Shown here in pieces: positions 10,055-11,339 of a DNA stretch of 34,963 nucleotides. The notes beneath the pieces are model-generated. The model did not search any database and was not told the origin of the DNA. It saw nothing but the letters and a program-made list of their open reading frames with translations. The position numbers and the translations under genes are program-made. This DNA comes from an uncultured Candidatus Saccharibacteria bacterium (lineage in GTDB: Bacteria; Patescibacteriota; Saccharimonadia; Saccharimonadales; UBA4665): the NCBI GenBank assembly GCA_964574245.1, contig CAZNLV010000005.1, positions 1-34,963 of the forward strand, given 5' to 3'. Position 1 is the stretch's first letter. Each line of letters opens with the position of its first letter.

Positions 10055-10921
10055 ATGGCTAGTACTCGGCAGCTCAAAGGCCGGATTCGTTCGGTCAAAA
10101 GTACCAAGCAGATAACAAAAGCCATGCAAATGGTAGCGGCGAGCAAAATGCGCCGTGCGCAAGATGCTACAAAAGCGACGCAGGACTATACGCGTACCGC
10201 CAATGAACTGCTCGCTTACCTTTCGAGTCAAGGTGCTACGGACAAGCACCCGCTGTTCCAAAAACGACCGGTAAAAGGTCGACTCATCATCGTCATCGCT
10301 GCCGATAAAGGATTGGCTGGCGCTTACAATGCCAACGTCATGAAGGCGTACATCCAAGCCCTGCGTGACGACGACAAAAACGGCGTGCGCAACGAAACGA
10401 TCGCTGTGGGCCGCAAGGCATCTCAGTTCGTGACCCGGCTCAAAGATACCGAGATTTGCGGGACCTACACTGACCTCCCGGATCATCCGGAGGGGGCGGA
10501 GTTTTATGCCATTCTTACCACAGCTTGTGCGATGTTTCAGGAGGGTAAGGTCGACGCGGTTGACATCATTTACACCAAGTTTGTCAGCAGTATGACGCAG
10601 GTCGCAGCAACTGACCGGATTTTGCCCGCGGGCTTTGCCAAGGCAGATGTGACTGCTTTTGTGCGTGACGCTGTGTACGAGCCGAGCACTGACGTGGTTC
10701 TCGAGGGGGTTGCCCGCCGACTCGTGGGCGCAGAGATATTCCAAGCCCTGTTAGATGCTCGGGCCTCCGAGCACAGCATGCGCATGCTTGCCATGAAAAA
10801 CGCGACGGATAATGCCGGTGAGTTGGTAGATGATTTGACGCTCGAAATGAACAAGGCTCGTCAAGCAGCCATAACCCAAGAACTGGCGGAAATATCCGGC
10901 GGCGCCGAGGCCATGAAGTAA
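10055..10921 (+). CDS. atpG: F1 ATP synthase subunit gamma
   Basis: N-terminus RIRSVKSTKQITKAMQMVAASKMRRAQ and C-terminus NKARQAAITQELAEISGGAEA. Confidence 0.96.
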   Translation: MASTRQLKGRIRSVKSTKQITKAMQMVAASKMRRAQDATKATQDYTRTANELLAYLSSQGATDKHPLFQKRPVKGRLIIVIAADKGLAGAYNANVMKAYIQALRDDDKNGVRNETIAVGRKASQFVTRLKDTEICGTYTDLPDHPEGAEFYAILTTACAMFQEGKVDAVDIIYTKFVSSMTQVAATDRILPAGFAKADVTAFVRDAVYEPSTDVVLEGVARRLVGAEIFQALLDARASEHSMRMLAMKNATDNAGELVDDLTLEMNKARQAAITQELAEISGGAEAMK

Positions 10922-11322
10922 TGACTGGAGTCGCGAGCCACGAGCCACGAAGCACGAGTATTAAAAGCTTCACCGACCTTAGAGCTTGGCGAGAAGCACA
11001 CGTGCTGGCGGTTAAAATATATAAAGTTACTCAAAACTTTCCGAAAAATGAAGTTTTTGGGCTCACCACCCAAATCCGTCGTGCTTCTGTTTCTGTAACT
11101 TCAAACATTGCCGAGGGTTTTGGTAGGCGCTCGCAAGCAGATAGACTCCGTTTTTATGATATGGCAAGAGCTTTGCTCGCAGAAGTACAAAGCCAATTGC
11201 TTATTGCTCGCGATGTTGACTATATGGATAAGACTATTTTCAATCAGTTAGCCATTATGGCGGTCGATGCACACAAGATTTTAACAGGGCTCATTAATGC
11301 TACAAAAGGTCGTGACTCGTAA
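10921..11322 (+). CDS. Four-helix-bundle protein (23S rRNA intervening-sequence protein family, PF05635/TIGR02436-like), 133 aa
   Basis: [83 protein letters not shown] matches the family hallmarks (F.dL.vWq.a, P..E.y.L..QirRaa.Si..NIAEG.gR.s..d...fl.iA.gS..E). The ATG overlaps the atpG stop (TAATG). Confidence 0.85.
10928..10962. repeat. Heptad array GAGTCGC GAGCCAC GAGCCAC GAAGCAC GAGTATT, covering codons 3-14 of the four-helix-bundle gene
   Basis: Read directly. It is the same GAGNNAC family as the array at 9944-9978 and ends the same way (gagtaat / gagtatt). Confidence 0.9.
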
Positions 11323-11339
11323 CTCGTGTCTAGTACCTC
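11312..11339. repeat. Inverted heptad array GTGACTC GTAACTC GTGTCTA GTACCTC at the 3' end of the four-helix-bundle gene
   Basis: The reverse complements are GAGTCAC, GAGTTAC, TAGACAC and GAGGTAC. The array spans the stop codon at 11320-11322. Confidence 0.85.

Follow-up and report, generated by a model that had tools for sequence, protein, structure and literature searches.

The closest described relatives of the element considered here are the intervening sequences (IVSs) of ribosomal RNA (rRNA) that carry an S23p/PF05635 open reading frame (ORF), as in Coxiella burnetii (helix 45), Leptospira, Brucella and Haemophilus. To our knowledge, the PF05635 family has been solved structurally but has lacked a function since 1993. 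The 23S rRNA IVS of C. burnetii has a terminal inverted-repeat stem of 28 bp (Warrier et al. 2016, PMC4990558). Directly before its S23p ORF stand GACAGAT heptamers in tandem, two or three of them plus a degenerate one, in numbers that differ between strains; the first heptad is the mapped site of RNase III cleavage (PMC4990558). Genes annotated as 23S_rRNA_IVP have also been described inside cas operons (Zhang et al. 2014, PMC3936711), such ORFs occur in 16S and 23S insertions of the candidate phyla radiation (CPR) (Tsurumaki et al. 2024, PMC11270868), and a catalogue exists of intergenic heptamer direct repeats (MacGregor 2015, PMC4679880). The subject of the present analysis is a PF05635 gene in a messenger RNA (mRNA) setting. 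It lies in a 34,963-nucleotide (nt) stretch of DNA (contig CAZNLV010000005.1, positions 1 to 34,963; hereafter the window) from a member of Candidatus Saccharimonadales (TM7, CPR), inside the ATP synthase (atp) operon on the + strand, where it is bracketed by inverted tandem arrays of 7-nt units (heptads); gene and arrays together are called the cassette.

The bracketing of PF05635 genes by inverted heptad arrays is a family-wide architecture. The unit consists of a promoter-less PF05635 gene and two inverted arrays of ~4–5 heptads at its start and stop codons, and the class of element that it represents is widespread but largely undescribed. It is probably an rRNA-IVS-type, stem-bracketed cassette living in mRNA, given the lock on sense orientation, the polarity of the arms, the coupled translation, the selection that acts on the arms and the precedent in Coxiella. 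The heptamers, stem and RNase III cleavage of the Coxiella IVS were known; the general heptad-arm rule for IVS architecture in mRNA operons appears to be new. A sequence-only reading of the locus had taken the heptad-arm architecture to be undescribed. This holds for the general rule, no paper generalising it having been found, but not for heptamers in an IVS stem, which had already been reported (PMC4990558). The searchable literature yielded no general account of inverted heptad arms around PF05635 genes, Coxiella being the only case, and no report of such cassettes or of empty heptad hairpins populating operon spacers.

The cassette in the ATP synthase operon

The features of the operon segment, in window coordinates, are as follows.

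8402–9937, + strand: atpA (ATP synthase alpha), from its ORF and from PF00006/PF00306 in the gene called in identical loci; upstream of the empty hairpin
9943–9975, + strand: 5' arm of the empty (gene-less) hairpin, (CGAGTCA) x4.7, 100% matches in Tandem Repeats Finder; in the atpA|atpG spacer
9993–10005, + strand: mini-hairpin CTGGC-GAA-GCCAG, from the fold; inside the loop of the empty element
10006–10036, + strand: 3' arm of the empty hairpin, (TATCTCG) x4 with CTCGT cores, from Tandem Repeats Finder and the sequence
10055–10921, + strand: atpG (ATP synthase gamma), PF00231, E = 9.6e-88; stop overlaps the cassette ATG
10921–11322, + strand: four-helix-bundle (23S rRNA IVS protein family) gene, 133 aa; PF05635, TIGR02436 and 2GSC matches
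10928–10962, + strand: cassette 5' heptad arm, GAGTCGC GAGCCAC GAGCCAC GAAGCAC GAGTATT; translated as the N-terminal tail of the protein
11309–11340, + strand: cassette 3' heptad arm, GTCGTGA CTCGTAA CTCGTGT CTAGTAC CTCG; includes the stop TAA of the gene at 11320–11322
11340–11348, + strand: Shine-Dalgarno-like GAAAGGAAG of atpD, from the sequence; abuts the cassette 3' arm
11354–12751, + strand: atpD (ATP synthase beta), PF00006, PF02874 and PF22919; gene call

The position of a four-helix-bundle gene between atpG and atpD is confirmed by the ORF at 10921–11322 and its Pfam-named neighbours, and the same protein and gene order are found on NCBI, ENA, JGI and Logan contigs, including one of 939 kb. 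The TAA of atpG (10919–10921) shares a base with the ATG of the cassette gene (10921–10923), giving the TAATG overlap originally noticed. The assumption that atpG and atpD are normally neighbours also proved sound, since the two lie ≤60 nt apart in 43 of the 65 atpG relatives from metagenomes in which the distance was measured; in relatives with a wider spacing, the junction is filled by assorted unrelated small ORFs. Neither a promoter-like site nor a + strand terminator was found within 9800–11500. Rfam returned no family at gathering score and no rRNA on the window, and its sole match in 9850–11450 (RAGATH-25, E = 5.1) is at chance level. The window cassette is not an insertion in a 23S or 16S rRNA helix, lying as it does between atpG and atpD, and no rRNA signature motifs occur in the cassette-bearing loci L001–L090.

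The 133-aa product belongs to the family to which it had been provisionally assigned. In profile hidden Markov model searches it matches both PF05635 (118 bits, cut-off 33.8; E = 2.8e-34) and TIGR02436 (112.8 bits, cut-off 24; E = 8.9e-33). It is similar to Protein Data Bank entry 2GSC (E = 6.6e-20 by sequence, 2.7e-28 by profile) and homologous to 2RLD; each was deposited with five chains, and Xcc0516 (2GSC) is a homopentamer according to Lin et al. 2006, as cited in PMC4990558. The motif RxxxSxxxNxxE is present (R54, S58, N62 and E65, invariant in the protein alignment) and forms the core of the GxxRxxxSxxxNxxE motif of Xcc0516 homologues (PMC3936711), the leading G of which is Q51 in the window's protein. 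The N- and C-terminal tails are the least conserved segments of the alignment, in which the N-terminal peptides SHESRV and SQESRV and the C-terminal tails GRDS, GLDS and NS are translated heptads. GC content is 0.43 in the gene and 0.55 in its neighbours. The family is large, with 2001 proteins at E ≤ 0.001 among the candidates gathered for this query; no homologue of the protein was found in phages, and PADLOC gave no defence-system family for it at E ≤ 0.01.

Both arrays reported from the sequence are present. The 5' array comprises five heptads over codons 3–14 (10928–10962), of which Tandem Repeats Finder recovers 3.6 copies of period 7 at 10934–10958, and the inverted 3' array runs from the last codons to 18 nt past the stop (11309–11340), with period 7 at 11310–11340 by the same program. 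The arms are 73–77% complementary over 22–26 nt (repeat pairs I4 and I7) and show the pairing pattern first described, 5-bp ACGAG/CUCGU blocks with 2x2 mismatches between them. With one mismatch allowed, ACGAGNNACGAG has 16 matches against 2.1 expected, a count that 0 of 100 shuffles reach; the pattern is thus 8-fold enriched over shuffles, and 13 of the 16 matches fall in four arrays. As a duplex, the arms pair better than shuffled controls (−26.1 kcal/mol against −13.8 ± 3.3, z = −3.7). The outcome for the 10900–11360 fold is divided, the arm duplex alone beating shuffles but the arms being unpaired in the minimum-energy fold (z = 0.1). With flanks of −25/+40 nt the window stem does form, amounting to 30 bp in the minimum-energy fold and to an expected 16 bp across the ensemble. 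The long periodic stem envisaged around the whole gene is robust in orthologues and in a paralogue from the same genome but weak in the window copy, the arms of which pair at 21 of 31 positions, compared with 27 of 31 for orthologues in which (GAGTCAC)x4 faces the 3' arm. The stem of the window copy is therefore eroded relative to its orthologues, a decaying instance of a robust family pattern.

Heptad arms across the family

Relatives were scanned at one genome per species, with 582 found and 80 loci kept; the kept loci, the window and its paralogue together yielded 87 non-redundant cassettes, hosted by CPR phyla and some proteobacterial metagenome-assembled genomes. Period-7 arrays stand at both ends of nearly all 87. 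The heptads vary by locus (ACGAGTC, AAGAGTC, GAATCAT, GTATTTC, GGAATTT, CGCATAA, ACCGTAT and others), and the 3' arm carries the matching reverse complement. A cassette's own arms score a median of 18.5 for complementarity, compared with 8.0 when arms of different loci are paired, and 74% of cassettes exceed the 95th percentile of the latter; direct, non-inverted comparison of the arms scores 8.0. The paired segments have a median length of 31 nt, equal to 4.4 heptads (interquartile range 3.8–4.9), and are 71–100% complementary. On folding, 86 of the 87 trimmed cassette RNAs have their arms paired with each other, and the arm duplexes average −29.7 kcal/mol compared with −9.7 for shuffled arms. 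For seven relatives or paralogues, adding ±300 nt of context leaves a stem of 23–33 bp intact, whether judged by the minimum-energy fold or by the ensemble. The arrays are specific in period: 202 have period 7, against 1, 10, 10, 21, 2 and 6 at periods 5, 6, 8, 9, 10 and 11. The stop codon lies within the 3' arm in 50 of the 87 cassettes, and an in-frame ATG within the 5' arm in 43. The proposal of a stem-bracketed IVS-family cassette in an mRNA context is upheld in that the cassette is discrete, its layout recurs in nearly all relatives and its own arms are complementary.

These comparisons bear directly on whether the heptads are fortuitous or reflect codon-level conservation of the protein termini, as might be suspected from the window alone: its 5' array is translated, its arms are only 68–77% complementary, and its 10900–11360 fold is no better than that of shuffled sequence. 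Against this stand the 8-fold excess of the pattern over shuffles and a period of 7 that is ~10–200x commoner than neighbouring periods. The protein tails that the heptads encode are the poorly conserved ones. Arms differ between loci yet stay complementary, and because their sequences differ in this way and the 3' arm is mostly non-coding, the heptads are not simply conserved coding sequence, a possibility that had been raised at the outset. Shuffle enrichment, own-arm complementarity, period-7 excess and arm conservation together refute an origin by chance or coding artefact, the probability of which we regard as negligible.

Bracketing extends to plasmids of cyanobacteria and Riemerella, where four of the six copies inspected have it. 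Clean (AGGAGTC)n/(GACTCCT)n arms are found at 1617–1982 of plasmid pNPUN01 of Nostoc punctiforme, a genetically tractable species; the arms are GGGTGTA/TACACCC in Calothrix, GGCAGAG/CTCTGCC in Stanieria and AAGGTTT/AAACCTT in Riemerella. A clear inverted pair is not seen at L171 (Nostoc PCC 7120), which abuts an ISL3 transposase gene. Some loci carry very long heptad arrays (L070, 3580–3677; L065, 1863–1959 and 2913–2991; L043, 2403–2470), with up to 14 perfect CATAACG units, which suggests that the arrays expand by slippage. Locus L085 (2501–4799) contains three four-helix-bundle cassettes in tandem, all with GTATTTC/GAAATAC arms, an array-like arrangement unseen elsewhere; ORFs of ~185 aa (3841–4398 and 4796–5347) lie beside at least the third.

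The genomic setting of the cassettes is strongly oriented. In 66 of 79 loci the genes on either side run in the same direction as the cassette, separated from it by spacers of tens of nt, and between co-directional genes 66 cassettes are sense and 2 antisense (97% sense, p = 8e-18). The arms are polar as well, the 5' arm being purine- and G-rich, with the G in the 5' arm for 525 G:C pairs and in the 3' arm for 119. The adjoining genes belong to housekeeping operons, and this proximity should not be read by annotators as a functional link. Recurrent junctions comprise atpG|atpD (five loci), rpsG|fusA (four, plus the paralogue L007 in the window's own genome), LexA|IMS-family polymerase (imuB-like; four), atpA|atpG, atpD|atpC and T4SS pilin|PrgI. 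At L007, a perfect 21-nt tandem repeat (GATGGCCTCGACAAACGTATG, x5.6, 5623–5740) was noted downstream of fusA, inside a called ORF of 138 aa (5545–5961), along with a 45-aa ORF between rpsL and rpsG. Start/stop overlap with atpG (TAATG or ATGA) is found in the window, L177, L181 and L183; in L179 a gap of 2 nt separates the two genes. The atpD Shine-Dalgarno sequence (GAAAGGAG) follows the 3' arm immediately, and GAAAGGAG/GAAAGGAA is kept at this position in the cassettes of L177, L179, L181, L183, L025 and L035.

This arrangement suggests how an IVS-type cassette might live in an mRNA. Sitting between co-transcribed genes, it would be transcribed by read-through of the host operon, and in the atpG|atpD clade its gene would be translated by coupling to atpG through the TAATG or ATGA overlaps. 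In the transcript, the arms would pair into an imperfect duplex of ~30 bp that loops the gene out and places the stop codon of atpG beside the ribosome-binding site of atpD, and the insertion would thereby be neutral for the topology of the host RNA. The arm duplex may serve RNase III as a substrate, as the stem of the Coxiella 23S IVS does, and pairing might in addition provide a site for processing or stability within the operon. Arm pairing in the cell, cleavage by RNase III and any influence on the expression of atp genes are inferred rather than observed; the mismatches, considered below, carry no G·U excess. In reduced-genome bacteria, such cassettes and their gene-less hairpins may influence how the mRNAs of core operons (ATP synthase, str) are processed.

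Inheritance, turnover and rival explanations

The four closest homologues examined (68–72% identity; L177, L179, L181 and L183) all lie at atpG|atpD, in genomes with atpG 65–81% identical, indicating that the window cassette is an old, vertically inherited resident of this junction. Across the five orthologous cassettes, identity at codon positions 1/2/3 is 75/84/42%; the 5' arm, which has the cleaner form (GAGTCAC) x4 in the orthologues, is 76% identical and the mostly non-coding 3' arm 95%, against 42% at third positions. Purifying selection thus acts on both protein and arms. The selfish insertion suggested earlier would not be a recent one, because orthologous cassettes occupy the same junction and their protein and arms are constrained. 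Relatives that lack the cassette have atpG ≤74% identical and atpG|atpD spacers too diverged to align, for which reason insertion boundaries cannot be defined from empty junctions.

Turnover is also apparent. In L035, atpG is 90% identical to that of the window, but the four-helix-bundle protein is only 56% identical and the heptads differ, consistent with replacement of the cassette at this junction between the two lineages. Over all cassettes, the more alike the proteins are, the more alike the arms tend to be (Spearman 0.49 and 0.39, values reached in 0 of 300 Mantel permutations). The gene core (10966–11305 in the window) is ~10 GC points below its neighbours, 0.41–0.46 against 0.49–0.56 in a comparison of the window with L177, L179, L181, L183, L025, L035 and L007. 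The low GC was weighed as a sign of recent horizontal insertion and rejected as the sole explanation, the same deficit being present in all orthologues and paralogues of an old resident.

In one rival explanation the element acts as DNA, with the arrays serving as single-strand fold-back hairpins or as terminal inverted repeats for a recombinase or transposase encoded elsewhere, in the manner of integron attC sites or IS200/IS605 ends; the gene would then be cargo or an accessory and the RNA stem a by-product. The cassette exchange in L035, the persistently low GC of the gene, the tandem cassettes of L085, complementarity without wobble tolerance and a patchy distribution across phyla that includes copies on conjugative cyanobacterial plasmids would all fit. 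However, no recombinase is linked to the cassettes, whose neighbours are ordinary operon genes; 97% sense orientation and a purine-rich 5' arm are unexpected of a symmetric DNA element; and orthologous cassettes have been inherited stably, their arms diverging less than their synonymous sites. Target-site duplications were not seen on reading the junctions, although no systematic search was made. A DNA-level mobile or recombination element is accordingly judged improbable.

A second, gene-less heptad element lies upstream in the same operon. In the 117-nt atpA|atpG spacer of the window, an empty hairpin (9943–10036) consists of two arms and a 30-nt loop and shares the ACGAG/CTCGT core with the cassette arms; its 5' arm is 83% identical to 10928–10963 of the cassette (repeat family D1). 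Folding of 9935–10045 gives a periodic stem in which 5-bp helices alternate with 2x2 internal loops, at −33.4 kcal/mol (z = −2.2). Empty hairpins at atpA|atpG are likewise found in L035 (AAGAGAC/..TAACTC heptads, z −1.1, with an analogous GCGC-GAA-GCGC mini-hairpin) and L025 (ATGAATC/ATGATTC, z −3.2), so that each of the three loci has its own heptads. At L119 an empty hairpin occupies atpG|atpD, and at L031 a full cassette occupies atpA|atpG. The gene-less hairpins are most likely derivatives of the same element that have kept the stem only. As a separate observation, the 5' arm of the window's empty hairpin is 84% complementary to the cassette 3' arm at 11310–11340 (pair I1), which exceeds the match between the cassette's own arms. 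Two further traces in the window, (TAGTTTA) x3.6 at 7289–7313, which follows an ORF ending at 7278 that is likely the c-subunit gene, and (GAATCAT) x2.3 at 12773–12788 in atpD|atpC, are not claimed as elements, since shuffled sequences fold as well (z −0.4 and −0.5); either decay of former elements or chance could account for them.

Passenger genes seem to settle generally in the atp operon spacers, which in relatives often hold other, unrelated small ORFs. A survey of small ORFs at atpA|atpG and atpG|atpD in L091–L170, L179, L181 and L183 brought to light an apparent toxin-antitoxin pair (L154) and hydrophobic, probably membrane ORFs (L107, L110–L112), both read from translations; an NYN-domain protein (L183) and an LMWPc-like ORF (L181), both tool-called; and ORFs of ~200–230 aa (L142, L143, L148 and L151).

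Several observations weigh against the IVS-type stem reading. The window stem has 0 arm–arm bp once the flank is ≥100 nt, in keeping with the z of 0.1 for 10900–11360. On plasmid pPg_01 of Pseudanabaena galeata (L176, 46268–46627, cas6|cas4), the arrays are direct rather than inverted, with (AAAGCTA) x14 upstream and (AAAGCCA) x10 downstream, and 84 flank arrays have no detectable inverted partner at the thresholds used; the stem therefore cannot be the whole story. Among the mismatches of the 87 stems, G·U (71) is not in excess over A·C (91), and nothing identifies the sense RNA as the target of selection in preference to DNA or a sequence read by a protein. Rfam holds no family matching the heptad element. 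Finally, the 3' arm abuts the atpD ribosome-binding site, and part of its conservation could therefore serve atpD translation.

Some of these points would be expected if the arrays, and not their pairing, were functional. The protein would then be a pentamer that recognises ~5 heptads in RNA or DNA, either regulating itself or mobilising and maintaining the arrays as RAYT transposases do with REP/REPIN sequences, and empty hairpins and solitary arrays would be non-autonomous partners served in trans. The median of 4.4 heptads per arm is close to the five chains of 2GSC and 2RLD and to the Xcc0516 homopentamer, and the direct arrays on both sides at L176 and the lack of a G·U excess point the same way. 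Avd, a homologue for which weak matches were obtained here, binds nucleic acid and reverse transcriptase in diversity-generating retroelements. Other parts of the argument cut both ways. Gene-less arrays number 24.8 per 100 kb around cassettes and 1.6 in atpG-selected loci (15x), but the loci compared also differ in taxonomy and AT content, and periods 6, 8 and 9 are also 5–9x denser. Arm sequence tracks protein identity, as simple co-inheritance would equally predict, and in both the window and L025 adjacent elements of a genome have a heptad core in common, while other cassettes that share a genome differ in their heptads (L062, L070 and L083). The protein has no known catalytic motif, and its binding of heptads is conjectural. 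Such a two-component system is possible but, in our estimation, unlikely.

The same doubt attaches to a broader version, in which pentamer and heptad arrays would form one two-part system across CPR, cyanobacteria, Bacteroidota and proteobacteria, the protein reading ~5 of its own heptads and maintaining, copying or regulating cassettes and empty hairpins, which would colonise loops of highly transcribed RNAs (rRNA helices and operon spacers). If this tentative scheme were true, it would assign a role to the orphan S23p/IVS proteins, account for how the STRR-type heptanucleotide repeats of cyanobacteria and similar repeats elsewhere arose, and represent a new kind of RNA-context mobile or regulatory module. 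PF05635 genes, so far read as rRNA oddities or, in cas operons, as candidates for Cas-associated functions, gain a conserved nucleic-acid architecture that turns an orphan family into a defined element with testable parts.

Comparison with known systems

The rRNA IVSs introduced above share with the window cassette both the protein family and terminal inverted repeats forming a stem around the ORF (here 73–77% complementary, z −3.7). The Coxiella IVS resembles it further in having tandem heptamers on the 5' side, next to the ORF start, of which the window cassette has five. The host RNA differs, being a polycistronic mRNA (the atpG|atpD spacer) rather than an rRNA helix. Whereas the Coxiella ORF is decaying and probably untranslated, the window gene is coupled to atpG and is under purifying selection. 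The window cassette also has heptads in both arms, and RNase III processing would apply to it by analogy.

Diversity-generating retroelements enter the comparison through Avd, which has a homologous four-helix-bundle fold. The matches of the window's protein are weak (bAvd PF22296, E = 8.6e-6; a PHROG Avd family; NF033474, 24 bits against a cut-off of 80), and the locus was rejected as such a retroelement because the Avd scores fall below cut-offs, the flanks are atpG and atpD, and no reverse transcriptase is adjacent; no long direct repeat (TR/VR) pair is present in 9900–11400. Integron cassettes likewise consist of a promoter-less ORF and an imperfect inverted repeat, in one orientation and dependent on an upstream host promoter. 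In contrast to them, the heptad cassettes have arms on both sides of the ORF, lack an integrase and attC R/L boxes, and are single and scattered in housekeeping operons rather than arrayed.

REP/BIME and REPIN-RAYT systems are also similar in placing short palindromic repeats in intra-operon spacers, where REP hairpins modulate operon mRNA stability, and REPIN-RAYT in particular combines a small protein gene flanked by inverted repeat copies with many gene-less copies nearby. The four-helix bundle of the window, however, is without HUH/Y1 transposase motifs and matches PF05635 and bAvd only, and the cassette repeats are 7-nt tandem arrays that vary per cassette, unlike the single genome-wide consensus of REP.

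At the level of the repeats there is a likeness to the STRR sequences of cyanobacteria and the TAACTGA repeats of Beggiatoaceae, tandem intergenic 7-nt units often situated just upstream of start codons (PMC4679880). Head-to-tail 7-nt units of this kind occur in the window at 9943–9975, 10006–10036, 10934–10958 and 11310–11340, and the cyanobacterial four-helix-bundle genes examined here are flanked by heptad arrays. STRR and TAACTGA repeats differ in having been described as direct repeats, without an associated gene or inverted partner, and a link between STRR-type repeats and PF05635 genes was not found in the searchable literature. The heptad-bracketed cassette thereby links three things: rRNA IVSs, operon-embedded four-helix-bundle genes, and the tandem heptanucleotide repeats of cyanobacteria and CPR.

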